A DNA stretch of 41,136 nucleotides from an uncultured Clostridia bacterium. Its GTDB lineage: Bacteria > Acidobacteriota > Aminicenantia > UBA2199. The stretch covers positions 1-41,136 of the forward strand of contig CAZOWT010000003.1 of assembly GCA_964583345.1 (NCBI GenBank), written 5' to 3'. This document shows, in pieces, positions 14,346 through 41,072 of the stretch. Under the pieces are notes generated by a model. The model was not told the origin of the DNA, did not search any database, and saw only the letters and a list, made by a program, of their open reading frames with translations. The stretch's first letter is position 1. Every line of letters begins with the position of its first letter. A program made the translations under genes and the position numbers.

Positions 14346-14354
14346 GAGTGAATA

Positions 14355-14831
14355 ATGAAGAAAAACGGGAGTATCATGATACTGACCATCATAGCGGTGT
14401 TAATCCTGTCGCTGCTGGTGTCCGGTTTGTTGACCGTGGGAACCACCGAGATTCATACCACCCAGAACTATCTGATGAGCAAAACTTCATATTATTTTGC
14501 CGTCCAGGGCATGGAAATGGTCATCGAATCGGTACGCAATACCGAGAGCCCGGCCGATATCGCGGTTCAGGAAACCCAGACCGAGGGCGGTGTGACCCAG
14601 AAGAAGTATATCACCGGCACGGTGCTGGACCTGCAGAGCGGGACACCCCAAAACATCGAAATATTCCAGGGGTTTGCGCCTCCGCCGATTCCCAACATGT
14701 CCCTGGGAACCGAGACCGGCATGGTTCCGGTGGTCTGGAGGATTCCCATCACCGCGGAAATCATCCAGAACCGGAGGAAAGCCTATACTGAGCTGCAGAC
14801 TGGGGTATATACATTGATGAAGGAATATTAG
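14355..14831 (+). CDS. PilX-like pilus assembly protein
   Basis: 158 aa. MKKNGSIMILTIIAVLILSLLVSGLLTVG...YYFAVQGMEMV resembles the PilX N-terminal domain. An AGGAG RBS precedes it, and it sits between the PilW-like and PilY1-like genes. Confidence 0.65.
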   Translation: MKKNGSIMILTIIAVLILSLLVSGLLTVGTTEIHTTQNYLMSKTSYYFAVQGMEMVIESVRNTESPADIAVQETQTEGGVTQKKYITGTVLDLQSGTPQNIEIFQGFAPPPIPNMSLGTETGMVPVVWRIPITAEIIQNRRKAYTELQTGVYTLMKEY

Positions 14832-14853
14832 ATCGGGGAAGGAGAGTGAGAAA

Positions 14854-17800
14854 ATGAAAAAAAAATTAATTTCGAGCGCCGTTATAATTATGTTGTTCCT
14901 GCTGTCATCTCCGGATTTGACACCGGATGACCGGGAAATCTTCAGCGCGTCGGTTCCGCCTTATGTCCTTTTTATACTGGACAATTCCGGTTCGATGGCG
15001 GGAAATGATTTTTTTGTAGCCAATATCGACAGCGACCCGGACAAGGTGGCCGGTTTTCAAACCTACACCACCTCAACCGGCAGGACCTATACCTACACCA
15101 CCACCGAAGAGGTCGGGGAGGATATTTGCGGTTGGGTGTGGAACAGCAGGCGGAGGAGATGGGAATATCAATGTGTTCCTGGTGAGCCCACCGGGGATTA
15201 CTATGCCACCCGGATGGAAGCGTTGAAAAGAGCGACCACTGAGCTGCTGGACCAGACCCGGGACACCATCAAATTGGGAGCCGCTCATTTTTTCTTCAGC
15301 GGATCCAATTCATCAGAAGCCCACGGGGCCCGGATATTCGCTCCGGTGCAGGATTATTCATCCGGTGATGCCACCCGGGATGCGGCATTCAATGCCCTGA
15401 CCGATTATATCAATAATACGTTGTCTGCAGATGCCTACACCCCGCTGTCCGAGAGTATGGATACGGCCTACGGCTATTTTTCCAACCTGATCTCTTCCAG
15501 CGATGGCAACCGCTGGACGGATATACATGGACATACCCGGATACCGGTTGGCAGCACCCCGCCTCCCCAGTATACCTGTCAGCGGACCTTCATCGTGCTG
15601 ATTACCGACGGAGAACCCACGGCCGATGACGCCAACTGGGGGTATCCGAATCCCTATACCGGCCTTGCCATGAACAATTATTCGTCATGCTTGCCCAACG
15701 TGGCCAAGTATCTTTACGAACATCCGGTTTACCCGGCCACCGATGGCATCGTGACCTATACCGTGGGCATGAGAATGAACAGTGCCGGACAAACCCTGCT
15801 GCAGACCACTTCTGACAATGCCCACGGCCACGGTGATCATTTCCCCGGGGATGACTATTACCAGTTGATTACCAACCTGCAGACAGTTTTGTCCGATATC
15901 GACCAGCGAAACTATGCCTTTACCCAGTACACCTCGCCCAAGAAAATCGCCACCGCCGATGACGAATTCAATGTGTCCTACAGCGGTTATTTTTTCAGCA
16001 ACGCGGACACGGTTCCTATCTGGGCCGGGCACTTGAAATGCAATGACATCGTTCCCTACGGGTCCACCTATATCTTCCACGAGTGCTGGGATGCGGCCGA
16101 TGTCATCACCGCCCAGGGGGAAGCCAACCGCAGTATTTCCACCATCAAAACCGCTACCAACAACCATACCTTAAGTAATATCAATTTTGTCAATACCAAC
16201 AGCCTGTCCCTGATGAAGGCCCTCAACGCCGACACCCAGGCCCAGGCGGTTGATATCATCAATTACATCAGGGGTTCAGTCCGGCCGGATGTTCCGTCCG
16301 CGGATCTGTTCCTGCTGGCCGATATATTCCACTCCACCGTCACCTACATGGGACAGCCCCTGCTCTGGAAATCCTTCTACAACCCGCCCGAATGCGACCC
16401 GGTCAATGCCACCACCGACAGCGACTGCTACCAGAAATTCTACGCGGATAACCAGAGCCGGCAGAAGGTCATATTTGTCGGCACCAATGACGGGGTGATT
16501 CATACCGTCAATGCCAGCCGAGATTCGGCCGATGGCGGCAGGGAAATATCCGGATTCATTCCGGATGAAGTCCTGCCCTTGTTGAAGCGGATCGCCGTCA
16601 ACCGGTATTACACCTATACGGCAGACGGCCTGATGACCGTGAATGATATCTATACCGGCACCACCGACCACTGGAGATCGATCCTGGCTTTTGGCCTCCG
16701 GGAAGGGGGAAAAGCCTACTATTGCCGGGATGTGACCAACCCCCTGAGCCAGACCCACAAATGGAAATTCCCGGCCTATGTGGCTTCGGGAACCGTTGGT
16801 TCCATCAGCACCAATGATTACACCTTATCCAGTATCAGCGGAACCTTTGCCGTGGACCAGTATATAGTCAATGAAAAACGCACGGCAACCGCCAGAATTT
16901 TATCACTCCCGGATACCAATAAAATCCGGTTGACTGATCTCAGCGGGACGATTTCAGTGGGCGATAAACTATTGGCGTTGCCCTGGTATTCGAAGTATAT
17001 CGGCAATACCTGGGGAAAACCCATAATCGGCCGAATCAAATATAAGAAAGGAAGCACCGGAAACCTGCAGGACAGGTGGGTGGCCATCCTGACCGGCGGT
17101 TTCGGAGAGGGAAGCAATTATGAGGGCAAGGCCATTTTTATAGTCGATGCCTGGACCGGGAATCTGATCTGGTGGCTGGGTTATGCCTCTTCGGACAGCA
17201 TCGATAATGACAAGTACCTGAAAAATGACAGCAACCTGAACTATGCCATCCCCCAGAGTGTGACGGCGGTTGACAAGGACAACAACACCTACCTGGATTC
17301 CATTTATTTCGGCAACCTGGGCGGGAACCTGTTCAAGCTGGACATATCCGATCCCCTGACCTCGACCTGGATACCTAAAATATTGTTCCGGGAAAACAAC
17401 ACCGACCAGCCGATTTACATGTCACCGTCAGTCTCCTATGACCAGTGTTACCAGCTCTGGGTTCACTTCGGCACCGGAAACCGAAACCATCCCCAGGACG
17501 GGCCGGCCGGCCGTTTCATCGGTATCCGGGATGACAGCACCGTTCCGTCGACCGGATGTGTCAGGGGCACGAATTTGCAGCAGTTGTCCTGGACCATGAA
17601 TACCATGGGCGATACCACCATTACCGGCGCCAACGGCTGGTATTTTAATTTCCCCGATGCCGACGAGATTCTTTTTGATCCCGATCCCATCGTCATTCCC
17701 AACAACACCTTGCCCTACCTTTATTTCAATACCTATCAACCGCAATCGGTGGTGGTGGGCGGCGATCCCTGCGGCAGCGGCGGCAACATGACATTTTATA

Positions 17801-18003
17801 AAATCGCCCTGCACTCCTGCGGGGATACGGTTTCCGGAACCCGGGAATCGGCCAGAATATCCGGGGGCGGATTGATTACCGGCAGCAAGTACCTGATGTA
17901 TGTCGGAACCGGTGAAACCGGTTCTCTGGAAATCAAGCGGTTTGAAACCTATACCATCCCCTATCCGGGTGGAATTATTTACTGGAAGGAGACCAAGCGA
18001 TAA
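14854..18003 (+). CDS. pilY1: PilY1/PilC-like type IV pilus tip adhesin with an N-terminal vWA domain
   Basis: 1049 aa with a signal peptide. vWA MIDAS VLFILDNSGSMAG and FIVLITDGEPT are present. The C-terminal half has beta-propeller-type segments (VIFVGTNDGVIHTV, GGNLFKLD) like the PilY1/PilC C-terminal domain. Confidence 0.85.
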   Translation: MKKKLISSAVIIMLFLLSSPDLTPDDREIFSASVPPYVLFILDNSGSMAGNDFFVANIDSDPDKVAGFQTYTTSTGRTYTYTTTEEVGEDICGWVWNSRRRRWEYQCVPGEPTGDYYATRMEALKRATTELLDQTRDTIKLGAAHFFFSGSNSSEAHGARIFAPVQDYSSGDATRDAAFNALTDYINNTLSADAYTPLSESMDTAYGYFSNLISSSDGNRWTDIHGHTRIPVGSTPPPQYTCQRTFIVLITDGEPTADDANWGYPNPYTGLAMNNYSSCLPNVAKYLYEHPVYPATDGIVTYTVGMRMNSAGQTLLQTTSDNAHGHGDHFPGDDYYQLITNLQTVLSDIDQRNYAFTQYTSPKKIATADDEFNVSYSGYFFSNADTVPIWAGHLKCNDIVPYGSTYIFHECWDAADVITAQGEANRSISTIKTATNNHTLSNINFVNTNSLSLMKALNADTQAQAVDIINYIRGSVRPDVPSADLFLLADIFHSTVTYMGQPLLWKSFYNPPECDPVNATTDSDCYQKFYADNQSRQKVIFVGTNDGVIHTVNASRDSADGGREISGFIPDEVLPLLKRIAVNRYYTYTADGLMTVNDIYTGTTDHWRSILAFGLREGGKAYYCRDVTNPLSQTHKWKFPAYVASGTVGSISTNDYTLSSISGTFAVDQYIVNEKRTATARILSLPDTNKIRLTDLSGTISVGDKLLALPWYSKYIGNTWGKPIIGRIKYKKGSTGNLQDRWVAILTGGFGEGSNYEGKAIFIVDAWTGNLIWWLGYASSDSIDNDKYLKNDSNLNYAIPQSVTAVDKDNNTYLDSIYFGNLGGNLFKLDISDPLTSTWIPKILFRENNTDQPIYMSPSVSYDQCYQLWVHFGTGNRNHPQDGPAGRFIGIRDDSTVPSTGCVRGTNLQQLSWTMNTMGDTTITGANGWYFNFPDADEILFDPDPIVIPNNTLPYLYFNTYQPQSVVVGGDPCGSGGNMTFYKIALHSCGDTVSGTRESARISGGGLITGSKYLMYVGTGETGSLEIKRFETYTIPYPGGIIYWKETKR

Positions 18004-30717: not shown

Positions 30718-32244
30718 ATGAAGTTGAAAAACGGCGTGTTTTTTTTTCTGGTTTTTTTTTTCTTTCTTTCCCTGATGTCGGAAGAGAAGGTGCGTGAATA
30801 CCTGAAAACCGGGGATTGGTATCCCTCCGGGAAATCCGAGCTATCTGATTTAATGAATCAACTTTTTTCCCGGGCGGAAAAGGTCGATATCCCCGGCAAT
30901 ATCGTGGGAATTGTTTCCCCTCATGCCGGTTTTGCCTATTCCGGCCTCTGCGCGGCCATGGCCTACCGGCAGCTGGAAGGAAATCCTCAAATCAGCAGGG
31001 TAATCATCCTGGGAACTTCCCACCATGCCGGTTTTTACGGGGCCTGTGTCTCCGATTTCACCCATCTGGCCACTCCGCTGGGAAAACTGGAGGTGGACAG
31101 GCAGGTGGTAGACAAACTGGCAGCAGAGAGACTCTTCCGCCTGGACAACCGGGTGATGCTCTATGAGCATTCCATCGAAAACCAGCTGCCCTTTATCCAG
31201 ACGGTTTTTAAAAACCGGGATATCCGGGTGGTTCCCATCCTGTTCGGTCAGCTGGACCATAAAGATTATCCGGTCATGGCCAGGATCATCGGTAACTTTA
31301 TCGATTCCGCGACCCTGGTGGTGGCCAGCAGTGATCTCGACCATTACGGACAAAACTTCGGTTATACCCCGTTCAGCCGCAATATCAAAGCGAATCTCAC
31401 TCGGCTGGATACCGGGATGATCGAGAATATTTCCCGCCTGGATATTGATGGGTATTTCCGGTACAAGGAAAAGACGGGTATCACCATGTGCGGTTTTGTG
31501 CCGGTAGGCGTGCTGCTGTATTTATACCCGGCCCGGGGCCATGGGGCCAGGCTAACGGATTACAGGAAATCCGGCGACCGAAACCAGGATTATTCTCTCA
31601 GTGTGAGCTATGCGTCTCTGGTCATATGGCAAAAGAAACCGGGTCACGGCGGCGGCGGCAACCGGGCGGGAGAAATCGGCCGGGAATCCGGCCTCTCCGC
31701 AACCGAAAAAAAAGATCTCCTGTCCATGGCCCGGGATACGCTCCGCCTTTTTTTCCAGCAGGCGGATGCCCGGGCGGTAATAGAAAAAAAATATCGAATA
31801 TCGGACAATTTGAAAAAGGAACTCGGGGTTTTTGTGACCCTGAAAAAGAACCAACAGCTCCGGGGATGTATCGGTTCGCTTATCGGCCGGAAACCGCTCT
31901 ACCTGGAGGTCATGGATGAGGCCATCAACGCCGCGGTGCGGGATCCCCGGTTTATCCCGGTCAAACAAGAGGAACTGCCCGGACTGAAAATTGAAATATC
32001 AGTGATGACCCCGCTGCAAAAAATTACGGATTATAAACGGATTCGCCTGGGAATTGACGGTGTGATTATTAAAAGCGGCTATTCCCAGGCGGTGTATCTG
32101 CCCCAAGTTGCCACTGAAACCGGCTGGAATCTGGATGAGTTCCTGAGCCATCTGTGCGAGAAAGCCGGCCTGGCATCCCGGGCATATCGGTCCCCGGATA
32201 CCGAATTCTATGTGTTTCAGGCCCAGGTATTCGGGGAAGACTGA
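30718..32244 (+). CDS. Fusion of AmmeMemoRadiSam system protein B (MEMO1 family) and protein A (AMMECR1 domain), with an N-terminal signal or anchor
   Basis: 508 aa. The hydrophobic N-terminus is MKLKNGVFFFLVFFFFLSLMS. The Memo part carries IVSPHAGFAYSG...GTSHH...SSDLDHYG. A Gly-rich linker KKPGHGGGGNRAG follows. The AMMECR1 part carries GVFVTLKKNQQLRGCIGS...DPRF. Confidence 0.85.
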   Translation: MKLKNGVFFFLVFFFFLSLMSEEKVREYLKTGDWYPSGKSELSDLMNQLFSRAEKVDIPGNIVGIVSPHAGFAYSGLCAAMAYRQLEGNPQISRVIILGTSHHAGFYGACVSDFTHLATPLGKLEVDRQVVDKLAAERLFRLDNRVMLYEHSIENQLPFIQTVFKNRDIRVVPILFGQLDHKDYPVMARIIGNFIDSATLVVASSDLDHYGQNFGYTPFSRNIKANLTRLDTGMIENISRLDIDGYFRYKEKTGITMCGFVPVGVLLYLYPARGHGARLTDYRKSGDRNQDYSLSVSYASLVIWQKKPGHGGGGNRAGEIGRESGLSATEKKDLLSMARDTLRLFFQQADARAVIEKKYRISDNLKKELGVFVTLKKNQQLRGCIGSLIGRKPLYLEVMDEAINAAVRDPRFIPVKQEELPGLKIEISVMTPLQKITDYKRIRLGIDGVIIKSGYSQAVYLPQVATETGWNLDEFLSHLCEKAGLASRAYRSPDTEFYVFQAQVFGED

Positions 32245-32256
32245 TATGTTTAGGCC

Positions 32257-33243
32257 ATGACCATCGATAGAAGGAAATTCGGAAAAACACTCCTGGCCTG
32301 CGCGGCCGGTACGGGAACCGGCCTGTTTTTCCCCACTGTGATGCCCGGGGCCGATTCAGGAAAGAGCCAGGTTTTGATTGCCCGTTCCCAGGCGTTGATC
32401 CGGGACAATCACGGCCACCTGCGCCGGGAAAAGGTTTTTGCGGTCGTCAACCGCTTGCTGATGCGTCTGACCGGCAATCATGACCCGGCAGCGGCCTGGA
32501 AATCGCTGTTCTCTCCCGGAGAAAAGGTGGGTGTCAAACTCAGCTGCCTGCCCGGTAAGCGCCTATCCTCCAGCCCGGGCTTGGTGATGGCCATTGCCGA
32601 CGGCCTGAAATCCGCCGGGATCCGGGAGCAGGATATTTTTATCTGGGATCGGACCGACCGGGAACTGATCGAGGCCGGATTTGATATTTCCCACCGGGGG
32701 ATTAATGTGTTAGGGACCGATAATATTCGCGGGGGAGGATACTCGGACCGGGTGGAAATATCGGGGAGTGTGGGCACCTGTTTCAGCCGGATTCTGGAAG
32801 CCATGGATGCGCTGATCAGCGTTCCGGTGCTCAAGGATCATGATATTGCCGGGGTTTCCATCGGCATGAAAAACTTTTTTGGGGCCATTCACAATCCCAA
32901 TAAATTCCACCAGAATGCCTGCGATCCCTATGTGGCGGATCTCTGTCGCCACCCGTTCATCAAAAACAGACTGAGGCTGATAGTCTGCGATGCGTCCCGG
33001 GTTCAGGTTCATAACGGGCCGGCTTTTTTCCCCGGATATGCCTGGGAGTATGGCGGCATACTGGTCAGCGCCGATCCGGTAGCCCTGGATTATACCGGCT
33101 GGCAGATTATCGAGAAGAGAAGAAAGGAACTGGGGCTGAAATCACTGCGGGAATCCGGCAGGGAACCCGCCTACATATTTACGGCTGGAAAACTTGGTTT
33201 GGGCCGGGCCAACGAAAAAGCCATACGGGTGGTTGAAATATGA
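32257..33243 (+). CDS. DUF362-domain protein with a twin-arginine signal
   Basis: 328 aa. MTIDRRKFGKTLLACAAGTGTG has a Tat-type RRxFxK motif plus an h-region. The remainder (VGVKLSC...VLKDHDIAGVSIGMKNFFG) resembles DUF362, called from recalled family features. Confidence 0.65.
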   Translation: MTIDRRKFGKTLLACAAGTGTGLFFPTVMPGADSGKSQVLIARSQALIRDNHGHLRREKVFAVVNRLLMRLTGNHDPAAAWKSLFSPGEKVGVKLSCLPGKRLSSSPGLVMAIADGLKSAGIREQDIFIWDRTDRELIEAGFDISHRGINVLGTDNIRGGGYSDRVEISGSVGTCFSRILEAMDALISVPVLKDHDIAGVSIGMKNFFGAIHNPNKFHQNACDPYVADLCRHPFIKNRLRLIVCDASRVQVHNGPAFFPGYAWEYGGILVSADPVALDYTGWQIIEKRRKELGLKSLRESGREPAYIFTAGKLGLGRANEKAIRVVEI

Positions 33244-34394
33244 AAAAATCCGTTGAACAAAACCAGATTTCCCGCAGGAAGTTTGTCAAGCAGGGTGTTC
33301 TGGCCGGATTCTGCTGTCCGCTGCTGCTGGCAAATTCCCGGTTGTTCGCCTTTGATTCCGGCAATATCGATACCGGCATCCGGCCTGAAAATGCCCGGGA
33401 AGCCCGTTATTATGAGAAAATCGCGGATAAAAAGATTATTTGCCGGCTCTGCCCGCATGAATGCCGGATTGCCGACCGGGAGCGGGGCGCCTGCGGGGTG
33501 CGGGAAAATCGGGGCGGCACCTATACCACCCTGGTTTACGGCAATCCCTGTTCGGTCCACGTGGACCCGATTGAGAAAAAACCCATGTTTCACTATTACC
33601 CGGCTACCCAGGCTTTTTCCATTGCCACTGCCGGCTGCAATTTTGTCTGCCGGTTCTGTCAAAACTGGGAAATTTCCCAGAAACGGCCGGAACAGATCAA
33701 ATCCATTAACCTTTTCCCGGCCGAGGTGATCCGGTCGGCAAAAAACAATGCCTGCCGCACCGTGGCCCACACCTACACCGAACCGGTGATTTTTTTTGAA
33801 TACATGCTGGATTGCTCCATCCAGGGGAAAAAGATGGGAATTCCGAATGTGATGATCTCCAATGGCTATATCCAGGAAAAACCCATGCGGGAACTCTGCC
33901 GGTATCTGGGGGCGGTCAAGGTCGATTTGAAGGCGTTTACGGAAAAATTTTACCAGGAGCAGTGCAGCGGAACCCTGAAGCCGGTGCTCGATACCCTGCA
34001 GGTCCTTAAGGATGAGGGCATATGGTTTGAAATCGTGGTGTTGATTATTCCCACGCTCAACGACAGTAGGAAGGAGATCGATGACATGACCCGCTGGATT
34101 GTCAAAGAATTGGGGCCGGACGTTCCCGTGCATTTTTCCCGCTATTACCCGACTTTCATGCTCAAGAATATCCCTCCCACTCCCCCGAGCCTGCTGGAGA
34201 TGGCCCATAAAATTGCCCGCGACAATGGCGTGCACTATGCCTATGTCGGCAACATCCTCTCGGATGCGGCCAACACCTATTGCCACAGCTGCGGTAAATT
34301 GCTCATCGAGCGTTTGGGTTTTTCCACCGATATCGTGGGGATGAAGGGCAATACCTGCAAACATTGCGGCCAGAAAATTCCCGGGGTTTTTTAG
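33240..34394 (+). CDS. AmmeMemoRadiSam system radical SAM enzyme (PflA-like) with an N-terminal twin-arginine signal-like extension
   Basis: 384 aa. The N-terminus ISRRKFVKQGVLAGFCCPLLLANSRLFA is a near-consensus Tat signal. It is followed by CRLCPHEC...GACGVREN and the radical SAM motif CNFVCRFCQNW. It overlaps the DUF362 gene by 4 nt. Confidence 0.85.
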   Translation: MKKSVEQNQISRRKFVKQGVLAGFCCPLLLANSRLFAFDSGNIDTGIRPENAREARYYEKIADKKIICRLCPHECRIADRERGACGVRENRGGTYTTLVYGNPCSVHVDPIEKKPMFHYYPATQAFSIATAGCNFVCRFCQNWEISQKRPEQIKSINLFPAEVIRSAKNNACRTVAHTYTEPVIFFEYMLDCSIQGKKMGIPNVMISNGYIQEKPMRELCRYLGAVKVDLKAFTEKFYQEQCSGTLKPVLDTLQVLKDEGIWFEIVVLIIPTLNDSRKEIDDMTRWIVKELGPDVPVHFSRYYPTFMLKNIPPTPPSLLEMAHKIARDNGVHYAYVGNILSDAANTYCHSCGKLLIERLGFSTDIVGMKGNTCKHCGQKIPGVF

Positions 34395-34915
34395 AAAAAT
34401 CTGGTTAGTTGTTTCCGAACGAATGCCCGAATGGCACGGTAATATCGCCGGCCGTTGATATAAATCAGATAAACCTGAAAAAAGGTTTTCGTCCGAATCG
34501 GCTGATGGAAACGATCCGGCAAAAAAAACGCTTGTCCGTCCCGTTCGACCCGGGTGACCACCCCGATGATGTTTTTATCGGTTATGACGGCATCGACGAC
34601 TTGCTGCCGGTCTGCCCTGATGACAAATGAATTCTTTTTGATTTTGGCCACCCGGTGCAGTACCAGCCTGTTGTTTGCCGGATGCCGGAATGCCACCACT
34701 TCCCCCGGAGAGGGCATTATTCCCTTCAGGGGAGATATCGTAATAAAGTCATTGTTCCGAATGGCGGGAGTCATGCTGCTGCCGGTGGCCCGGAAGCGGA
34801 AAGATGCGCCTTTGTCATGAACTGCCCGCATGAGTTCCATCAGTATCCTGCCGGATATGGACAGGGACTTTTCTTTGCTTTCGGGATTATGCATTCCAGG
34901 TTTGCTTCCGGTCAC
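34391..34915 (-). CDS. S24/S26-family (signal peptidase I / LexA-like) serine peptidase; candidate leader peptidase of the RiPP-like operon
   Basis: 174 aa with the Ser motif ATGSSMTPAI, GEVVAF, and the Lys motif VLHRVAKIK. There is no N-terminal TM helix. It overlaps the upstream radical SAM gene by 4 nt. Confidence 0.7.
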   Translation of the reverse strand: MTGSKPGMHNPESKEKSLSISGRILMELMRAVHDKGASFRFRATGSSMTPAIRNNDFITISPLKGIMPSPGEVVAFRHPANNRLVLHRVAKIKKNSFVIRADRQQVVDAVITDKNIIGVVTRVERDGQAFFLPDRFHQPIRTKTFFQVYLIYINGRRYYRAIRAFVRKQLTRFF

Positions 34916-36105
34916 AGGTATGGTTTTACCTTTAAAGATATTCCAGTTTTTTTTACTCTTTCCTTCCAGTTTTTAACCGTCCAGGCATTTTCCCCGGTTT
35001 CCAGCAGTCCAAGTAGGCGCGCCTGGGCATGGGCCACCCGGCAGAGGTATTCCACCGGGGTATCCAGGGTGCCGTGTTCTGACCAGGATTTTGCCGGGCA
35101 CTGTTCGCAGAGGTTCTTTAAAAAACAGCGGGCGCAGCGTTTCAGATAATCCGGATTTTCAGCCGTGATATTTTTTATCCGGCATCGGTTTTCTTGCAGG
35201 GCTGTTTTCAAATCCTGATGTTTTAAATCAATGAGCAGGTCGGGATGTCGAAGCAGCAGGCAGGGTTGAAGCATACCGTAGGCGTCGATACTGACCGTAT
35301 GACCGGCCCCGCAATCCAGCAATTTTTTCCCGGAAGGACCCAGGAATCGAAGGCAGAATTGCCTCATATCACGGTCAAACAGCTCCCGGTCTCGAGCCAT
35401 GAATGCAACAGCTTTTTCCGGTTTCGGCCGGAGGCGTTCGATGGCCCGGTTTTTTCGGTTTGAGTCATGCCGGGCCCGCAGGTCATACAGATAGGAATAA
35501 GAGGGGGACCGGTCCATTCCGGGCAGGGAGCCGGCCCAGGATTCGAATGCTTTGATTTCGCCCTGGTTTTGCGGCAGAAGGGCACCCTTGACCACAAAAG
35601 GTATGTGGTGTTTTAACAATAGATCAATTCCCTTTCTGAATTGTTCGAATGAACCGGGAATACGTGTAACTGCCTCGACCGATTTTTTCCGCATGCCGTA
35701 AACCGTGACTTCGATCTTTTCGAGCGGAGGGATAGCTAAAAAAAGCTTTGCCAGCGATTTGGTGATCAGGGTGGCATTGGTAAACAACCGGACCCTCATT
35801 CCCAGTCGCCGGGCGAACCGGTACAATTCGGGAAAATCCGCTCTCAGCAGGGGCTCACCCCCGGTAAAACGGACCGTTAGGGCGCCCAAAGAGGCCGCCT
35901 GTTTCAGTATGGCTTTCCATTCGTCGGCGGTCAGTTCCCGGGAACGGGCTTCCGGATCATCCGGCGGACGGTTGATGTAACAATGGATGCAATTTTGGTT
36001 GCAGCGCTCGGTTAGTTCGATATCCAGGGAAGGCAGTTGCGGGTGGCCTTTTTTCCACAGAGAACGGTATCCGGGATCCCTTTTTGAGTATCCATCAGCG
36101 GCCAT
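34912..36105 (-). CDS. Radical SAM/SPASM-domain peptide maturase (paralogue 3 of 3)
   Basis: 397 aa with CNQNCIHC (CxxxCxxC), GGEPLLR, and the SPASM-type motifs CGAGHTVSIDAYGMLQPC and CARCFLKNLCEQCPA. Confidence 0.85.
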   Translation of the reverse strand: MAADGYSKRDPGYRSLWKKGHPQLPSLDIELTERCNQNCIHCYINRPPDDPEARSRELTADEWKAILKQAASLGALTVRFTGGEPLLRADFPELYRFARRLGMRVRLFTNATLITKSLAKLFLAIPPLEKIEVTVYGMRKKSVEAVTRIPGSFEQFRKGIDLLLKHHIPFVVKGALLPQNQGEIKAFESWAGSLPGMDRSPSYSYLYDLRARHDSNRKNRAIERLRPKPEKAVAFMARDRELFDRDMRQFCLRFLGPSGKKLLDCGAGHTVSIDAYGMLQPCLLLRHPDLLIDLKHQDLKTALQENRCRIKNITAENPDYLKRCARCFLKNLCEQCPAKSWSEHGTLDTPVEYLCRVAHAQARLLGLLETGENAWTVKNWKERVKKTGISLKVKPYL

Positions 36106-36406
36106 GAACCCGGGTTACCATTTTTCGCTTTACAAATTCGTTAATCAGACCCATCACATCTTTCTGAATTTCGGATAATGGTGAATCATATTCGGTTTCC
36201 AAAAACTGAATGATTTCCTCCACGGTTTTTTTTCCATCCAATTGTCCCCAGATGGCTTTACCGGTTTCGTTCAGGGTGAACAGATCTTCTTCCATATCCC
36301 CGATTCCGCTGACCAGAGGGATAAGGATCAATTCACCTTCGATCTCTCGGAACACAATTTCTTCTGAGGGTTCGAAAATATCTTTTATGTGAATGGTTGG
36401 TTTCAT
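36095..36406 (-). CDS. PqqD-family peptide chaperone (RiPP recognition element)
   Basis: 103 aa. VFREIEGELILIPL...LFTLNETGKAIWGQLDGKKTVEEIIQFLETEYD is the typical PqqD/RRE pattern. A GGAG RBS lies 7 nt upstream. Confidence 0.8.
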   Translation of the reverse strand: MKPTIHIKDIFEPSEEIVFREIEGELILIPLVSGIGDMEEDLFTLNETGKAIWGQLDGKKTVEEIIQFLETEYDSPLSEIQKDVMGLINEFVKRKMVTRVHGR

Positions 36407-36436
36407 ATTATTTCTCCATGGATCGAATATTCAATT

Positions 36437-36679
36437 TCAACTGGTTGTCCACTGGCGGCAAATCTGATAACTGTTGTTGATAAAACAGGTGCCGAAATAC
36501 CCATCCGGGCCCTGGCCCACCTGGCCGGTTTTGCAGAAAAGTAGCACCTGTTCCTCGGGCGTTTTATTGGCCAGGCTGATTAACAGCGGTTTCTCCCACC
36601 TTTTCTTTTTTATCATGCTATTTTTTATCATATTACAAAAAGGGTATTTTGTCAATAAATCCTGAAATATTGCTTTCAT
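36437..36679 (-). CDS. Candidate RiPP precursor peptide P1 (longest ORF 80 aa; the paralogue-supported start at ATG 36616 gives 59 aa)
   Basis: MIKKKRWEKPLLISLANKTPEEQVLLFCKTGQVGQGPDGYFGTCFINNSYQICRQWTTS aligns residue-for-residue with P2 and more loosely with P3. It lies directly upstream of the PqqD gene. Confidence 0.6.
   Translation of the reverse strand: MKAIFQDLLTKYPFCNMIKNSMIKKKRWEKPLLISLANKTPEEQVLLFCKTGQVGQGPDGYFGTCFINNSYQICRQWTTS
36627..36655 (-). promoter_or_regulatory. Internal sigma-70-type promoter TTGACA-N17-TATGAT in front of P1
   Basis: The minus strand reads atttaTTGACAaaataccctttttgtaaTATGATaaaaaatagcATGata. The -35 (36655-36650) is perfect, the spacer is 17 nt, and the -10 (36632-36627) matches 5 of 6. 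The ATG at 36616 is 10 nt after the -10. Confidence 0.5.
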
Positions 36680-36717
36680 TCATCTTCTTTTCCTTTTCGG
36701 GTCCTGAAAAATCCGGA

Positions 36718-36894
36718 TTAACTCTGGGTCCATTGTTTGCAGGTCGTTCCCTGGGGAATCCGGCAGGTTCCGAAGAATCCCTCGGGTCCCTGTCCGGGTA
36801 TACCGGTCTTGCAAAATAGCAAAACATGTTCCTCGGGTTTTTTGATTTCCAGGATGATTAATCCGGGTTTTGTCCACTTTTTTTGCTTTTTCAT
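36718..36894 (-). CDS. Candidate RiPP precursor peptide P2 (58 aa), not in the ORF track
   Basis: Manual reverse translation gives MKKQKKWTKPGLIILEIKKPEEHVLLFCKTGIPGQGPEGFFGTCRIPQGTTCKQWTQS with a TAA stop at 36718-36720. The ATG overlaps the TGA of the upstream radical SAM gene (ATGA at 36891-36894). Confidence 0.6.
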   Translation of the reverse strand: MKKQKKWTKPGLIILEIKKPEEHVLLFCKTGIPGQGPEGFFGTCRIPQGTTCKQWTQS

Positions 36895-38018
36895 GGTTTC
36901 GGTCCGGTTTTATCCAGGTTTTTTGCCCGGGCATGGGCCACCCGGCAAAAATAGTCCACTTTGCGGTCCAGATTCCCGGTTTCCAGGTGGGCATGGGCCG
37001 GGCACCACAGGCACAGGTTGATGATAGGACAGATTTTGCATTCAAGTGTCATGGGGTTTTCTTCGGCTCTTGTTTCGACTACCCTGGGTGTGAACCGGTT
37101 CCAGGCTTCTTCCAGATTGCCATTTCGCCAGTCATACCGGAAATCCGGATGGTTGAGCGAGGAGCAGAGGCGAAACAATCCGTCACTGCCCATGACGAAA
37201 CTTCCGTTGCCCATGCCGCAAAGAAAGAGACGGTTATCGGTTTTTTCCTCTTTGTCGGTCCGGATATATGAATGAATATTATTCTCCAGTACCTTAAATC
37301 GCTCGGGATCCGAAGTTTCCAGTTTTACGATCTCTTCCGGTGTCAGCCGCTCTGCTTGAATGTCCCGGTTCCGGTCAGGATCGCGGTCGTATCTCAGGTG
37401 CAGGAAGGGATCAAAACGGTAGTAATCCTTTGTTTTCTGGCGGCAGAAGCCGGAGATTTTCGCAAACTCGTGGAAATTGCTTCTAAGCATCATGGCCTTC
37501 AAACGGATTTTAACCTCTCCGTTGGTCAGCAACTGTAGGCCCCGCATGAATGTTTTATATGAACCCGGTGTGCGGGTTACGGCTTCATAGGTTTCTTCAG
37601 TAACCCCGTAAACCGATACCTCAATGTCTCGGGGAGGGTAGCGCCTGAACAATTTGATATGTTCTCCGGTGATCAGGTTGGCGTTGGTAAATACGGATAC
37701 CAGCAGGCCTTTCTTCTTGAGCAACAGGTAAATATCGGGAAAGTCCCGGCGCAGCAGCGGTTCGCCTCCGGTCAGCAGGCACCAGCAGGCTCCCAGGGAA
37801 ACGGCCTCATCGGCCAGTCGGTTTATCTCGGAAATGGTCAGCTCTTTTTCCCGGGCTGTGTTGTCTCCGGCCGGCAGGTTGATGTAGCAATGCCGGCAGT
37901 TGTTGTTGCAGCGGGCGGTCAATTCAAGCTCGAAGGAAATCAGGGATCTACGGGATTTGATTTTGTCCCACAGGGCAAACTCGGGAAGGGCAATGGAGCT
38001 GATATATGATTTCTTCAT
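36891..38018 (-). CDS. Radical SAM/SPASM-domain peptide maturase (paralogue 2 of 3)
   Basis: 375 aa with CNNNCRHC, GGEPLLR, and the SPASM-type motifs CGMGNGSFVMGSDGLFRLC and CKICPIINLCLWCPA. The C-terminal YFCRVAHARA parallels YLCRVAHAQA in the 397-aa paralogue. Confidence 0.85.
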   Translation of the reverse strand: MKKSYISSIALPEFALWDKIKSRRSLISFELELTARCNNNCRHCYINLPAGDNTAREKELTISEINRLADEAVSLGACWCLLTGGEPLLRRDFPDIYLLLKKKGLLVSVFTNANLITGEHIKLFRRYPPRDIEVSVYGVTEETYEAVTRTPGSYKTFMRGLQLLTNGEVKIRLKAMMLRSNFHEFAKISGFCRQKTKDYYRFDPFLHLRYDRDPDRNRDIQAERLTPEEIVKLETSDPERFKVLENNIHSYIRTDKEEKTDNRLFLCGMGNGSFVMGSDGLFRLCSSLNHPDFRYDWRNGNLEEAWNRFTPRVVETRAEENPMTLECKICPIINLCLWCPAHAHLETGNLDRKVDYFCRVAHARAKNLDKTGPKP

Positions 38019-38794
38019 GGTTTCCTAAGCAATGCGCCGCCTTTCATCTGGCCATTCGTCTTTTCAATATGCACAATGTCCATCCCGCTTCTTTCAAGCT
38101 CTGATTTAAGGGCGTCTACCGAAACAAAGGTATGGATGAATTCCCCGTTCCTCCAGAGTATGTCACCGGTTTCATATTTCAGGTTTCCAAGTGTCAAGCC
38201 GGCAAACAACTTTTTGAAAATTTCCTTCCAGGCCGAAATATTTTTCTCGGTTTTCCACTGAAATTGCAGGAGGGCATAACCACCGGGCCGGAGCATGCTT
38301 TTCACCCTTTTCAGCATTTCAACCCGCCGTTTGCGGGTGGGGATGGCGGAATACAAATCCGGTGAAAACCAGATGATATCGAAGGAATCGGGGGGGAATT
38401 CGATTCGGGATAATTCCTGGACACTGACTTCAATATTCAGCCCCTGATCGATTAAGTTATGGCGGGCACTCTCTGCCATGGCCTCAACAAAATCAACGCC
38501 GTGAACCTCAAAATCCAGGCGGGCCAGGGGAAGCGCTTCCCGGCCCCCGCCAACGCCGATTATCAATATTCTTCCTCTTTTGAAAGGAATTTTTAGTATC
38601 AGTTTTTCCTCGATTTCATTGAAACCGGAAAACAAGAGATCTCTTCGGGTGAAGGATGCAATGCTGTCTGGTTTGGCATAGGTTTGGCGGCTGAATTTCA
38701 CCAGGTCATCCGGCCTCATCAGTACCACTGCCAGGGACTGGATGAACTTTCCCAGTGAAATGAACCGTTTTGCACATCGGATTCTAAGATTCAT
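38015..38794 (-). CDS. Class I SAM-dependent methyltransferase
   Basis: 259 aa with the motif I sequence ILIIGVGGGREALPLA, then FEVHGVDF and LRPGGYALL. It overlaps both neighbours by 4 nt. Confidence 0.8.
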   Translation of the reverse strand: MNLRIRCAKRFISLGKFIQSLAVVLMRPDDLVKFSRQTYAKPDSIASFTRRDLLFSGFNEIEEKLILKIPFKRGRILIIGVGGGREALPLARLDFEVHGVDFVEAMAESARHNLIDQGLNIEVSVQELSRIEFPPDSFDIIWFSPDLYSAIPTRKRRVEMLKRVKSMLRPGGYALLQFQWKTEKNISAWKEIFKKLFAGLTLGNLKYETGDILWRNGEFIHTFVSVDALKSELERSGMDIVHIEKTNGQMKGGALLRKP

Positions 38795-40779
38795 AGATGT
38801 CCTGCTGTCAATTTATTTAAAAGATCCTTAACCTCATTGCCCTTATTAAAATATAAAAAATAACAGGGGACTTCAATAACGATTTTTTCCAGCAGATCCA
38901 GGCTTTTCTGCCACCAATCCCCGGTGCCGAGGGGTTTGATTAAAAAAGACAGCAGTTTGCCGATGATGATCTGTTTATCTTGAATTTGTTCCAGCCGGTT
39001 ATCCGGGGATTTTTCCAGAAAAAGCATGGCTTTCAGAGGTGCAGATGAAGGTGAAACCTCAGGAATGTCCCCGTGGCTCCAGGTCCCATGAATTTTAAAT
39101 CCCTCCGGCCAGTTTCTGACAATATTCCGGTCATCACACAGAATTTCCGTTTCATCCTGAAGAATCCGGGTCAGGGTGGATTTCCCGGCCCCCGAATGAC
39201 CCATAAGAAGAAAGCCTGAACCCTGGTGAATGACACCGCTGGAGTGGAAATAACAACCTTCATGGTATGAAAGAACCTGAGCGATCAACATCTGGTCGGA
39301 AGGCATCAGGGATAACGATGTCACGTCTCCTTTGATAAAGTATTTTTTCTTGGTATCATCATTATAAAGCCGGTTGAAGCGGTAATCCCGGCTGAAGATC
39401 CCGACCTGGGGATAGGAGGTTCTCCGGCCTCCTGAACCGATACAGAAATAAACCCAGTTGTTTCGATGTTTGAAAATTTTCCAGGGTGGCTGGTGAAACA
39501 CCGGTTGTCCCATTTTATTCATTTGAAGGGGTGGATCGGAAAAAAAATGCTGGATGATGGTGTTGTTGTCTCCCGGACCGTCCACCTCAAACGCCTTGAA
39601 TTTGGGATGAAAGGTATTTTTCCGAATAGGCAGTTCCGATTCCAATTGAATGGTAATATTGGCAATTTCATAAAATCGCCGGTGATTCTTTTCCCAGCTT
39701 TTTTTTAATTTCTGTTTTTCCCGGGTGATATCGCAAAGATATTCGATTTTTTGATGATAATTACTGTGCTCCAGGTAGCGATATGCCGGGCAACTGGAAC
39801 AGCTATCGGCAATATCGCAGGAAAAGCAATCCCCGGTTTGAAGCGGCTGGAGGTTGAACTGGTTTTTCAGGGAAGGAATAAATGTATTCCAGATGGTCTC
39901 AAAGGAATTTTTTTTCAGACTTTTTCTGGTAGAGGAGTCCTTGGCAAAAGCACAGAAACTCAAATCACCATAGGGATCGACATGAAATTCCTGCCGGGTC
40001 CGAATGCAGGAAGCAAACACTCCGGTATCGGACATGTTTCCTTCCACATCAATCGATTCTTCACGATTTGCAGGGAGGTGTGAAAAGGGAGGACTAAAAT
40101 CAAGCTCAGCCGCCTGGGCAGGAAGGAGCCGCTGGCCTATAATTTCACGGTTCTTTTTCAAGTTATTTTCGGCAGACAGGTACAGCCAGGAGGCTCCGTA
40201 GCGCCAGGAGGGTGTCAGCGATTCTGCCAGCCGGACCATTTCTGAAAGGTGAATAATATTATCTTTCATGGGCACAATCTGCATTGTGAAATTGGTTCCG
40301 GCTTCTTTCAGGTAGGCGATTCCCTGCATCAGCAATTGAAAGGATCCAGGAGTCCGGGTGATATGGTCATGGGTTTTTTCATCGGCACCGTACAGGGCAA
40401 CCAGCTTGATTCCCTCTCTCTTCAAAAGCCGGGCAATCGAAGGGGTTATCAGGGTGCCATTGGTATTCAGTGTGTAACGATTGGTTTTTCTGGTTATATA
40501 ATCGAAAATTTCAGGAAAATCAGCTCTCAATAGCGGTTCACCTCCGGAAATGTACCACTGGCGGCAGCCCATTCTTCTGGCTTCATCCACCAGTTTTTTA
40601 ATTTCATCAATCTGGAGTTCAGCCTTTATTTTTTTCGAAGCCGGTGGTATTCTCACCCAGCAGTGGTGGCAGTTCAGGTTGCAGCGGTAGGTGAGGTCCA
40701 GCGATCCCTTTCGCGGGATGCGGAGAGAACTGCAGGGCCTGATAGTTGTAAGATAATCATTCATTTCAGCATTGATCAT
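38791..40779 (-). CDS. Radical SAM/SPASM-domain maturase (paralogue 1 of 3) fused to a C-terminal HPr-kinase-like P-loop domain
   Basis: 662 aa. The N-terminal half carries CNLNCHHC, GGEPLLR, CIRTRQEFHVDPYGDLSFC and CFSCDIADSCSSCPA. The C-terminal ~300 aa contain FHSSGVIHQGSGFLLMGHSGAGKSTLTRILQDETEILCDDRNIV, which mirrors the HprK catalytic core (H-G-V...G-x-G-V-L-I-x-G-x-S-G-x-G-K-S...D-D). Confidence 0.8.
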   Translation of the reverse strand: MINAEMNDYLTTIRPCSSLRIPRKGSLDLTYRCNLNCHHCWVRIPPASKKIKAELQIDEIKKLVDEARRMGCRQWYISGGEPLLRADFPEIFDYITRKTNRYTLNTNGTLITPSIARLLKREGIKLVALYGADEKTHDHITRTPGSFQLLMQGIAYLKEAGTNFTMQIVPMKDNIIHLSEMVRLAESLTPSWRYGASWLYLSAENNLKKNREIIGQRLLPAQAAELDFSPPFSHLPANREESIDVEGNMSDTGVFASCIRTRQEFHVDPYGDLSFCAFAKDSSTRKSLKKNSFETIWNTFIPSLKNQFNLQPLQTGDCFSCDIADSCSSCPAYRYLEHSNYHQKIEYLCDITREKQKLKKSWEKNHRRFYEIANITIQLESELPIRKNTFHPKFKAFEVDGPGDNNTIIQHFFSDPPLQMNKMGQPVFHQPPWKIFKHRNNWVYFCIGSGGRRTSYPQVGIFSRDYRFNRLYNDDTKKKYFIKGDVTSLSLMPSDQMLIAQVLSYHEGCYFHSSGVIHQGSGFLLMGHSGAGKSTLTRILQDETEILCDDRNIVRNWPEGFKIHGTWSHGDIPEVSPSSAPLKAMLFLEKSPDNRLEQIQDKQIIIGKLLSFLIKPLGTGDWWQKSLDLLEKIVIEVPCYFLYFNKGNEVKDLLNKLTAGHL

Positions 40780-40841
40780 ATTTCAATTTTAAATCCTTTT
40801 CACCCGCCGATTTTCAAAAACCTGCCTGAAAAAATATTCGC

Positions 40842-41072
40842 TCATGAAGTATTATTCTGCGCCTGACAGGCGGCGTGGCATGCGCTCGACTGCCTACATT
40901 GATTGAAGGCCGAGTTCGGACCTGTAAAATTTTGGGTTTTACAATTCAGCGTCAGCACCTCGTCGGGATTGCTCCGGCATAATATTACCAGCTGGGGCCT
41001 TTCCCAGAACTTTTTCTTGTCATATTTTTTTGCTGTATCCATTTTTTTCATTTCTTTTTCAGTTTCCTTCAT
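40842..41072 (-). CDS. Candidate RiPP precursor peptide P3 (76 aa from the first ATG; the start is uncertain, with alternative Met codons at residues 8 and 11)
   Basis: MKETEKEMKKMDTAKKYDKKKFWERPQLVILCRSNPDEVLTLNCKTQNFTGPNSAFNQCRQSSACHAACQAQNNTS shares W-x-[KR]-P-x-L, P-[DE]-E-x-L, CKT, GP, spaced Cys and the C-terminal TS with P1 and P2. It is the first gene of the operon. Confidence 0.55.
   Translation of the reverse strand: MKETEKEMKKMDTAKKYDKKKFWERPQLVILCRSNPDEVLTLNCKTQNFTGPNSAFNQCRQSSACHAACQAQNNTS

Follow-up and report, generated by a model that had tools for sequence, protein, structure and literature searches.

A nine-gene operon with three radical SAM/SPASM enzymes and an HprK-like kinase domain: a candidate undescribed RiPP cluster

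Linear polyphosphorylated peptides (LPP), described from the lppA-K-B-S-D-N cluster of Paenibacillus alginolyticus (Popov et al., Nat Commun 2026; PMC13381572), are the closest characterised system to the gene cluster analysed here. This cluster lies in a stretch of 41,136 nucleotides (contig CAZOWT010000003.1, positions 1 to 41,136; hereafter the window) from an uncultured bacterium, and is a candidate for making peptides that ribosomes synthesize and that are modified after translation (RiPPs). The LPP components are an HprK-like kinase, a discrete RiPP recognition element (RRE) and a peptidase resembling signal peptidase I (SpI). The LPP leader carries the motif YxxPxVL, the RRE binds a [Y/W]xxP leader and the kinase polyphosphorylates Ser3 of the core (PMC13381572). 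The peptidase requires the RRE and cleaves unphosphorylated precursor poorly, and radical S-adenosylmethionine (SAM) enzymes go unmentioned in the LPP paper (PMC13381572).

Two other RiPP groups share parts with the window cluster. Paeninodin-type lasso peptides, whose kinases include PadeK, ThcoK, SyanK and PsmK, have a WxxP leader, a discrete PqqD-type RRE, an HprK-like kinase with a His-Lys-Asp-Asp set and a conserved C-terminal Ser in the precursor. This Ser is the site of (poly)phosphorylation, and an NTP-transferase-like enzyme is optional. Sactipeptide and ranthipeptide pathways (AlbA, SkfB, CteB, PapB, StsB) have seven-Cys SPASM enzymes that act on short Cys-containing peptides with a leader. 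Several maturases per cluster are known in such pathways, as with RumMC1/2 and with TrnC/D of thuricin CD.

The window cluster consists of nine open reading frames (ORFs) that run co-directionally on the minus strand from 41072 to 34391, a span of about 6.7 kb. We estimate a probability of roughly 70% that the nine genes make up an entire operon for the biosynthesis of heavily modified peptides of ribosomal origin, working by the steps proposed below. Its gene content, the identities of its domains and folds, its conservation and co-occurrence across phyla, and the homology of its kinase, RRE and peptidase to loci with the LPP gene order are all observed. The genes and domains are as follows.

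40842..41072 (−): precursor peptide P3 (ORF list; alternative starts at 41051 and 41042)
38791..40779 (−): radical SAM/SPASM-ScmC fusion protein, 662 amino acids (ORF list)
39685..40779 (−): radical SAM/SPASM domain of the fusion, about residues 1-365 (Pfam Radical_SAM, 86 bits, and SPASM)
38791..39684 (−): ScmC-type P-loop kinase domain of the fusion, about residues 366-662 (ScmC model, fold and motifs)
38015..38794 (−): class-I SAM-dependent methyltransferase, 259 amino acids (Pfam Methyltransf_25/11/12/31)
36891..38018 (−): RS2, second radical SAM/SPASM enzyme, 375 amino acids (Pfam, alignment)
36718..36894 (−): precursor peptide P2, 58 amino acids (ORF list, peptide alignment)
36437..36679 (−): precursor peptide P1, 80 amino acids as listed (ORF list, peptide alignment)
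36095..36406 (−): discrete PqqD-family RRE, 103 amino acids (Pfam PqqD, 57 bits)
34912..36105 (−): RS3, third radical SAM/SPASM enzyme, 397 amino acids (Pfam, alignment)
34391..34915 (−): SipW/archaeal-type, SpI-like serine peptidase, 174 amino acids (Pfam Peptidase_S24)

The initial annotation had described a tightly packed minus-strand operon of nine genes, and the ORF list reproduced all of its coordinates, including the five overlaps between adjacent genes (38791-38794, 38015-38018, 36891-36894, 36095-36105 and 34912-34915). Pfam and NCBIfam scans bore out the identities it gave to the radical SAM, PqqD, methyltransferase and S24 peptidase proteins. Its central proposal of a single RiPP-type pathway is upheld by the co-location of three radical SAM/SPASM enzymes, a PqqD-type RRE, a kinase of the HprK/PEPCK fold, a methyltransferase and a serine peptidase.

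To place the cluster among relatives, we used profile-guided scans, which yielded 34 genomic and 60 metagenomic loci (numbered with the prefix L), whose ORFs were sorted by BLAST against the window proteins. A genome scan with the single fusion sequence gave no matches; the profile scan succeeded. The gene set and its order are retained in the near-identical locus L038, in L001 (71% identity) and in L002 and L102 (about 50%), except that P1 and P2 are found only in L038. Because near-identical and diverged syntenic loci keep the genes in order, these are real genes and not chance ORFs. The metagenomic locus L038 also reaches past the end of the window, and upstream of P3 it holds only divergent EamA and ATP-sulfurylase genes. 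Therefore, the operon begins at P3 and is complete within the window. Elsewhere in the window, the cluster genes have no additional paralogues.

The comparison with LPP is close at the level of the core module. In the window cluster, too, the kinase is HprK-like, the PqqD-type RRE is a discrete protein, the peptidase is SpI-like (Ser/His/Asp) and of the SipW/archaeal type, and the leader has the form [Y/W]xxPx[L/V]. In both systems, one to several precursors per cluster combine a conserved N-terminus with a variable C-terminal part. The trio of kinase, RRE and peptidase is thus not new, being the core of the LPP family (PMC13381572). Among our loci, L035 from Peribacillus kribbensis follows the published gene order K-B-S-D-N; homology of its kinase, RRE and peptidase to those in the window is weak but can be detected.

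Beyond this module, the two systems diverge. The window cluster adds three radical SAM/SPASM enzymes, one of them fused to the kinase, whereas the LPP product is linear and its cluster has no cross-linking enzyme. The linear LPP cores contrast with those of the window, which are short, rich in Cys and end in a conserved Ser. Of the LPP leader consensus YxxPxVLxHQxIxFETxxS, only [W/Y]xxPx[L] is shared; the remainder in the window family is ...R-P-E-E-A-V-L-x-x-C-K. The NTP transferase LppN and the MsbA-like exporter LppD have no counterparts in the window, L001, L002, L038 or L102, and the clade to which the window belongs has a methyltransferase instead. The hosts also differ: anaerobes and archaea for the window family, Bacillota for LPP.

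The resemblance to lasso peptides is confined to the leader motif and the RRE as far as lasso-specific features are concerned. Neither a lasso cyclase (Asn-synthetase-like C protein) nor a transglutaminase-like B2 protease domain is present in the nine proteins. Lasso peptides have a threaded macrolactam and a B2 cysteine protease, whereas radical SAM cross-links and a serine leader peptidase are proposed for the window. Compared with sactipeptides and ranthipeptides, the window RRE is a separate protein and not an N-terminal domain of the radical SAM enzyme. The window Cys spacing, CK...C...CxxC...S, differs from both the hairpin of sactipeptides and the CxxxX repeat of ranthipeptides, and the kinase, methyltransferase and SpI-like peptidase are absent from the sactipeptide and ranthipeptide scheme. 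Scores of the window radical SAM enzymes against the StsB, AlbA and PapB models are 45-84 bits, with cut-offs of 340-850.

The kinase assignment is supported at the level of fold and motif. For the kinase half of the fusion (the C-terminal 297 residues), the best NCBIfam match is ScmC (E = 4e-8, 32.8 bits, cut-off 125), followed by HprK_rel_B (27.5 bits). PF27840 (ScmC) is a precomputed Pfam annotation on P0001, a protein 100% identical to that of the window, and on the best 120 of 1,732 homologues. An AlphaFold model of the domain, built from 20 homologues, has a mean confidence (pLDDT) of 89. In a Foldseek search of the PDB at E <= 1e-3, all but one of the 50 matches listed (of 52) are PEPCK and HprK/P structures, with E-values of 6.5e-7 to 5e-4; these two proteins share one fold. 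A profile search of PDB sequences gave, outside the radical SAM matches and at E < 0.5, only HprK, apart from one unrelated protein (E = 0.08). The Walker A sequence GHSGAGKST and the motif LCDDR are invariant in homologues of the domain, as are H147, K168, D184 and D185 (domain numbering). A His-Lys-Asp-Asp set is reported to be catalytic in kinases that tailor lasso peptides (PMC9266682). We therefore predict a P-loop kinase of the HprK/PEPCK fold, because the domain has this fold and its invariant His-Lys-Asp-Asp residues match the catalytic set of the lasso kinases. The kinase fusion in the initial annotation thus stands on the ScmC model, fold and motifs, although a significant sequence match to Hpr_kinase_C was not obtained (Pfam, E = 0.058).

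In the paeninodin-type lasso systems, the kinases place phosphate on a C-terminal Ser that is strongly conserved among the precursors (PMC9266682). This target fits the terminal Ser that is conserved in the window's peptide family. The fusion of kinase and radical SAM enzyme is retained in hundreds of homologues and involves one specific radical SAM lineage. It is not obligatory, because stand-alone ScmC proteins occur in the related loci L013, L014 and L051-L055.

The same data bear on another role for the ScmC domain, in which it leaves no phosphate on the final product but activates Ser for a reaction coupled to the radical SAM enzyme that it is fused to (phosphate elimination to dehydroalanine and then Cys addition, or C-terminal processing), or serves only as an ATP-driven scaffold. 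The conserved covalent fusion to one radical SAM lineage suggests that the two act jointly on adjacent sites. In addition, the last Cys pair is only 4-7 residues before the terminal Ser, and class III/IV lanthipeptide synthetases phosphorylate and then eliminate (mentioned in PMC4289311). However, no lyase domain is detectable in the nine proteins, the stand-alone ScmC proteins listed above show that the fusion can be dispensed with, and paeninodin-type peptides and LPP retain their phosphate or polyphosphate. Moreover, sister loci keep NTP_transf_5, which decorates phospho-Ser in pseudomycoidin. We consider this role distinctly improbable.

The ScmC match also raises the question of whether the window holds a member or a divergent copy of a catalogued system, namely SynChlorMet (SCM), GeoRSP or HPr-rel. 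ScmC is the top match for the kinase half, ScmE and ScmF are among the top matches of the radical SAM proteins, and PF27840 is recorded on an identical protein. The architecture is also SCM-like: in its in-silico definition (TIGR04248-TIGR04251), SCM has an HprK-like ScmC, a PqqD-like protein and multiple radical SAM/SPASM proteins. However, all nine proteins fall short of the NCBIfam cut-offs of these named systems. Scores against the SCM equivalogs were 32.8 vs 125 bits for ScmC, 27.8 vs 100 for ScmD, 91.0 vs 400 for ScmE and 92.7 vs 400 for ScmF, a shortfall of three- to fourfold. True SCM membership was rejected, as these cut-offs are missed by the window, by ten further ScmC-like proteins of related loci and by three more proteins from other loci. 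Proteins closer to ScmE/F do exist, in L086 (152 and 214 bits), but they form a different branch. GeoRSP membership was likewise rejected (radical SAM proteins, 49.8 and 45.9 vs 400 bits for TIGR04303; PqqD, 22.1 vs 100 for TIGR04302), as was HPr-rel (HprK_rel_A 12.8 and HprK_rel_B 27.5 vs 200 bits).

Moreover, the window fuses ScmC to a radical SAM enzyme and has three such enzymes rather than two. The SCM definition covers neither the peptides nor the SpI-like peptidase or methyltransferase, all of which are present in the window, and the window peptides match no NCBIfam or Pfam model. Membership or divergent copying is thus quite unlikely. Judged from these profiles, the cluster is best regarded as a relative of the SCM cassette and not a member, because every score is far below the curated cut-off. 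The possible link to in-silico systems that the initial annotation raised survives in this reduced form, with SynChlorMet as the nearest system by ScmC and PF27840; for GeoRSP and HPr-rel, which it named, the link does not hold. The product and function of SCM are uncharacterised, as are those of the window cluster.

Literature searches are consistent with a candidate undescribed cluster, as initially proposed: no curated family claims it and no paper describing it was found. Specifically, no description of a RiPP cluster combining radical SAM with HprK/ScmC was found in the literature searched, which did not extend to subscription-only papers, and the same literature gave no mention of SynChlorMet or ScmC. 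A paper that treats HPr kinase and radical SAM together does so for lasso clusters only (PMC4289311).

The three radical SAM/SPASM proteins are paralogues, as had been suggested. Pfam Radical_SAM matches the 662-, 375- and 397-residue proteins with 74-86 bits, and alignment confirms a common GGEPLLR motif and Y-[LF]-C tail. The CX3CX2C motif (C33/C37/C40, fusion numbering) is invariant in all three, as are seven SPASM Cys residues (C258, C276, C318, C321, C327, C330 and C349). All ten Cys are kept in 28 of 30 fusion homologues, in agreement with the radical SAM/SPASM subfamily. In the fetched loci, each of the three lineages is 42-65% identical across phyla by BLAST, vs 25-39% between paralogues; RS2 orthologues are 50-65% identical across phyla (28-39% to their paralogues) and RS3 orthologues 51-63%. 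Because identity across phyla exceeds identity between paralogues, the alignments indicate an ancient triplication and non-redundant roles for the three enzymes.

The three lineages are kept in loci with anywhere from 1 to at least 10 peptides. The idea in the initial annotation that three enzymes serve three substrates was therefore abandoned: the radical SAM groups are ancient, peptide number varies and P1 and P2 are lineage-specific. For the same reason, one radical SAM enzyme per peptide was rejected as a firm rule. One enzyme per Cys was also rejected as a firm rule, since the Acidobacteriota relatives have three Cys with one radical SAM enzyme, which is closest to the RS2 group.

Foldseek with a full-length model of the fusion matched MoaA, SkfB, SuiB, PqqE and anSME. 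These structural neighbours are generic SPASM/twitch proteins and do not discriminate the type of reaction. Two fusion homologues in the methyltransferase clade, P0016 (L002:10001-11959) and P0022, lack the SPASM residues C318, C321, C327 and C349 and retain the radical SAM motif and the kinase domain, which suggests that this sub-lineage has lost one auxiliary Fe-S cluster. In L044 (9-2261, +), a 750-residue fusion of a GT4 glycosyltransferase and a radical SAM protein adjoins a three-enzyme cluster with an ABC exporter and NTP_transf_5.

The small peptides are paralogues too, in agreement with the initial annotation. P1 and P2 are 62% identical, each is about 40% identical to P3, and P2 matches P3 by BLASTP with an E-value of 7e-10. 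A Trp, a Pro, three Cys and the final Ser are invariant among the three. P3 is of the canonical type, with a W-E-R-P-Q-L leader, a DEVLTLN-CK junction, four core Cys (CK...C...CxxxC) and the final Ser, and in L001, L002, L102 and L038 its orthologue sits immediately upstream of the fusion gene. P2 is a three-Cys variant ending in QWTQS, whose ATG overlaps the stop codon of the upstream radical SAM gene. P1 is also a three-Cys variant, ending in QWTTS. L038 has both, but the 71%-identical L001 lacks them, as do L002 and L102; P1 and P2 are an addition specific to this lineage.

P1 was correctly recognised as a precursor paralogue, but its listed length of 80 residues is doubtful. Its true start is probably the ATG at 36631 or 36616, giving 64 or 59 residues, because homologues start a few Lys-rich residues ahead of the Trp and because a promoter-like match lies inside the long ORF. 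This match, TTGACA-17-TATGAT (sigma-70-like, 11/12), is at 36655-36627 (−), is the best in the region and adjoins both in-frame ATGs on their upstream side. It could possibly act as an internal promoter that raises expression of P1 and the downstream genes. Apart from this site, the scan for promoters and terminators gave nothing informative.

To characterise the family, we used 81 distinct peptides from the fetched loci, 78 of them long enough for spacing analysis. We also built a profile from the window peptides and their database matches and searched it against 1.84 billion proteins at E <= 1e-3. This search gave 3,148 representative clusters, and 159 representatives were analysed for features. 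The leader has a Lys-rich N-terminus and then an invariant W/Y and P in the motif [W/Y]-x-x-P-x-[L], which is followed at fixed spacing by the junction (R)-P-E-E-x-V-L-x-x-C-K. The first core Cys is at +20/+21 from the W/Y in 73 of 78 locus peptides and at +21 in 143 of 159 representatives, with 'CK' at the junction in 148 of the latter. The core holds three or four Cys in the locus peptides and four in 145 of the 159 representatives. Of the 81 locus peptides, 74 terminate in Ser; among the representatives, 136 of 159 end in Ser and 9 in Thr, so that the C-terminal Ser has a frequency of about 86-91% in the family. Other than at the conserved positions, the cores are hypervariable.

Against Pfam and NCBIfam, P1-P3 and their relatives gave no match even at E <= 10, except for a faint match of one relative to a lasso leader. 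The peptides had been thought to resemble no precursor family. This view needs correction, as the [W/Y]xxPx[L] leader is of the lasso/LPP type and the C-terminal Ser is conserved.

Peptide genes are commonly interspersed among the enzyme genes, with four each in L043 and L044. In L047 (9066-14000, +), at least 10 divergent precursor genes lie among the genes for the fusion, RS3, PqqD, S24 and RS2 proteins; from its sequence, L047 appears to be a strongly diversifying, multi-substrate cluster. Some precursors from Methanoregula/Methanomicrobiales (L009:10438-11930; P0122, P0124-P0127, P0130 and P0132) end in ...KSME, ...KWDR, ...APTD or ...ITMF. In these, a Ser or Thr lies among the final two to four residues, and the fused kinase domain is present.

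The peptides are also the best place to weigh a cofactor or small-metabolite pathway with the logic of PQQ or mycofactocin, where a PqqD chaperone and SPASM enzymes act at the C-terminus of a small peptide, a peptidase sets free a small product and most of the peptide is lost. True PqqD is the best-scoring model for the discrete PqqD protein (40.6 bits, cut-off 46), and the W-T-K-P of the leader resembles PqqA. Besides AlbA, the only near-full-length alignment of the fusion's radical SAM half among the NCBIfam matches listed is to MftC (residues 27-335, 102 bits, cut-off 265). MftC acts on a conserved C-terminal residue, and a C-terminal Ser is conserved here. The operon also has no exporter and is surrounded by housekeeping genes. 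By contrast, hypervariable cores and 4 to at least 10 divergent copies in L043, L044 and L047 are the pattern of a diversifying natural product, and three or four Cys are conserved throughout the whole core. In addition, many sister loci have a dedicated ABC exporter, and no conserved cofactor-using dehydrogenase or downstream cofactor gene is nearby. A cofactor pathway is thus very unlikely.

The PqqD protein is conserved in all related loci. Its next NCBIfam matches after PqqD are the lasso PqqD, ScmD and GeoRSP PqqD models, all under the cut-off. The 174-residue peptidase scores highest in NCBIfam against sigpep_I_arch (E = 7.5e-10), with the NiSOD maturation protease next. Across 30 homologues, G45, M48, P50, H87, R88 and D102 do not vary and 97% have S47, which points to a Ser/His/Asp peptidase like LppS. 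A LexA-type (Ser/Lys) peptidase was rejected on account of the invariant His87-Arg88 and Asp102. By analogy with LPP, we predict that the S24 protein is an RRE-dependent leader peptidase; candidate cleavage sites directly follow the PEE or the VL of the ...PEE-x-VL-x-x-CK junction.

The methyltransferase, which the initial annotation placed in the pathway, is not shared by the whole family. It marks one sub-clade only, being found among the fetched loci just in the window and L038, L001, L002/L003 and L102. No homologue of NTP_transf_5 or of an ABC protein is present in the window, L001, L002, L038 or L102, and the methyltransferase loci are exactly those that lack NTP_transf_5 and the exporter. 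The methyltransferase appears to replace the nucleotidyltransferase tailoring step. An upstream peptide ending in C-x-A-C-Q-[AS]-[QE]-N-x-x-S co-occurs with the methyltransferase in four of four independent lineages. We infer a clade-specific tailoring enzyme that acts near the leader-cleavage step or at the C-terminal tail, with the new N-terminus, the C-terminal carboxylate and the phosphate as candidate methyl acceptors.

A single-enzyme relative of the cluster, L075 (3494-4642, +), encodes a 382-residue protein in which an N-terminal SpI/SipW-like peptidase (sigpep_I_arch, 47 bits) is fused to a homologue of the window methyltransferase. This arrangement recalls the logic of the bifunctional prepilin peptidase/N-methyltransferase. 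In L002 (15855-18612, +) and L003 (6434-9191, +), the S24 gene is followed by co-directional genes for an HD-domain protein, a 154-residue protein and a GT1 glycosyltransferase, which may be extra tailoring genes. LPP clusters are likewise embedded in polysaccharide loci.

The family is large. The fusion protein has 1,732 homologues at E <= 1e-10, and the best 120 of these are full-length, about 50% identical and labelled only 'radical SAM protein'; they come from metagenome-assembled genomes (MAGs) of Thermodesulfobacteriota, Omnitrophota and Pseudomonadota. Fusion homologues occur in Thermodesulfobacteriota, Omnitrophota, Chloroflexota, Methanoregula and others. The three-enzyme set (fusion, RS2, RS3, PqqD, S24 peptidase and peptides), often in shuffled order, was found in Leptolinea, Syntrophaceae, Desulfobulbaceae, Deferrimicrobium, Omnitrophota, an Actinomycetes MAG and the archaeon Methanoregula, and the conserved cluster is also present on Desulfobacterota-like contigs. 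Sister loci L005, L007, L044 and L048 of this type carry NTP_transf_5 and an MsbA-like ABC exporter, and so hold the complete LPP gene set together with three SPASM enzymes.

Reduced variants also occur. L013 has a stand-alone ScmC and two radical SAM enzymes. A large Acidobacteriota group has one radical SAM enzyme, PqqD, ScmC and an S24-like region at the head of a giant DUF11-repeat protein. In these loci (L015-L025, L031 and L062-L084; for example, L022:9351-16334), the order is PqqD, one radical SAM enzyme, a peptide ending in ...GS and ScmC. The giant ORF has about 2,100-2,400 residues, with an S24-like start and then at least 10 DUF11 repeats and CARDB. This could be a true fusion or the outcome of ORF calling that ran neighbouring genes together.

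Returning to the proposed peptide-modifying operon, the chemical steps, their order, the modification sites and the function of the product are what we infer in the following scheme. The PqqD protein would bind the W-x-x-P-x-L leader of P3, P1 and P2 and hand the precursors to the enzymes. Each of the three radical SAM/SPASM enzymes would act on the core by a radical step of its own, most probably forming thioether-type cross-links from the three or four conserved Cys. Cross-links derived from Cys seem most likely because the Cys are the only conserved core positions within variable surroundings, as in sactipeptides and ranthipeptides. The fused HprK-like kinase domain would phosphorylate a Ser at or near the C-terminus, most probably the almost universal terminal one, and in this sub-clade only, the methyltransferase would add a tailoring methyl group. 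Finally, the SipW-type serine peptidase, assisted by the PqqD protein, would remove the leader, probably with a preference for modified precursor. The initial annotation had phosphorylation simply follow cross-linking; the LPP precedent instead favours phosphorylation that precedes leader removal and probably promotes it.

Several observations weigh against this scheme. NCBIfam provides no close characterised relative of the radical SAM enzymes: AhbD, NirJ, MftC, ScmE/F, StsB and PapB are the best matches, all far below cut-offs, and thioether formation is the default guess for their chemistry. The three conserved Cys accompanied by one radical SAM enzyme in the Acidobacteriota relatives count against a strict correspondence of one enzyme to each Cys. 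The ScmC domain is only distantly related by sequence to proven kinases (E = 0.058-0.08 to HprK), and the LPP kinase targets Ser3 of the core and not the C-terminus. Four Methanoregula peptides and about 9-14% of the family lack the final Ser even though the kinase domain is present. Finally, this operon has no exporter or immunity gene.

The surroundings of the operon consist of housekeeping genes, and scans of the window for tRNAs and Rfam families found no features. Downstream of the operon and convergent to it, an AmmeMemoRadiSam-type trio (30718-34394, +) encodes a 508-residue Memo-AMMECR1 fusion, a DUF362 protein with a twin-arginine-like N-terminus and a 384-residue radical SAM enzyme. 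The trio also adjoins the cluster in L001 and L038. Its adjacency probably reflects synteny and not function, because the trio is absent from the other loci. Elsewhere in the window, a type IV pilus minor-pilin/PilY1-like block (13218-18003, +) encodes a 375-residue protein with an N-terminal methylation motif and then a 1,049-residue protein with a weak match to the PilY1 beta-propeller. Between sugar-nucleotide genes and this block is a 514-residue ORF with a TTG start (10003-11547, −), which has no Pfam match at E <= 1e-5.

The component types of the cluster are all known, and its module for recognition, phosphorylation and cleavage is already characterised in LPP. What is new, as far as we can tell, is the combination of three SPASM enzymes with an LPP-type module, the fusion of kinase and radical SAM enzyme, the large unnamed precursor family and the methyltransferase clade. 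The combination is not rare, with more than 1,700 fusion homologues and more than 3,000 precursor clusters in many anaerobic phyla and in Methanoregula. The proteins are annotated only as 'radical SAM protein' or 'hypothetical protein', and the product is uncharacterised. For experiments, the window offers a compact operon of about 6.7 kb with three natural substrates, three non-redundant SPASM enzymes and a natural fusion of kinase and radical SAM enzyme.

The cluster joins three lines of research that have been pursued separately: peptides cross-linked by radical SAM enzymes, phosphorylated lasso peptides and LPP. In a more speculative reading, which we think unlikely, it would represent a third, very large branch of a lasso/LPP superfamily defined by phospho-Ser and an RRE, with three radical SAM/SPASM enzymes setting the topology and the kinase fused to one of them. 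Possible forms of this idea are a cross-link that depends on or consumes phospho-Ser or, in the methyltransferase clade, a methylated phosphate or C-terminus. If true, anaerobic bacteria and methanogenic archaea would make a scaffold without precedent among RiPPs. More broadly, the comparison suggests a modular superfamily in which one module for recognition, phosphorylation and cleavage is combined with a lasso cyclase, with no topology-setting enzyme, or with one to three radical SAM enzymes.

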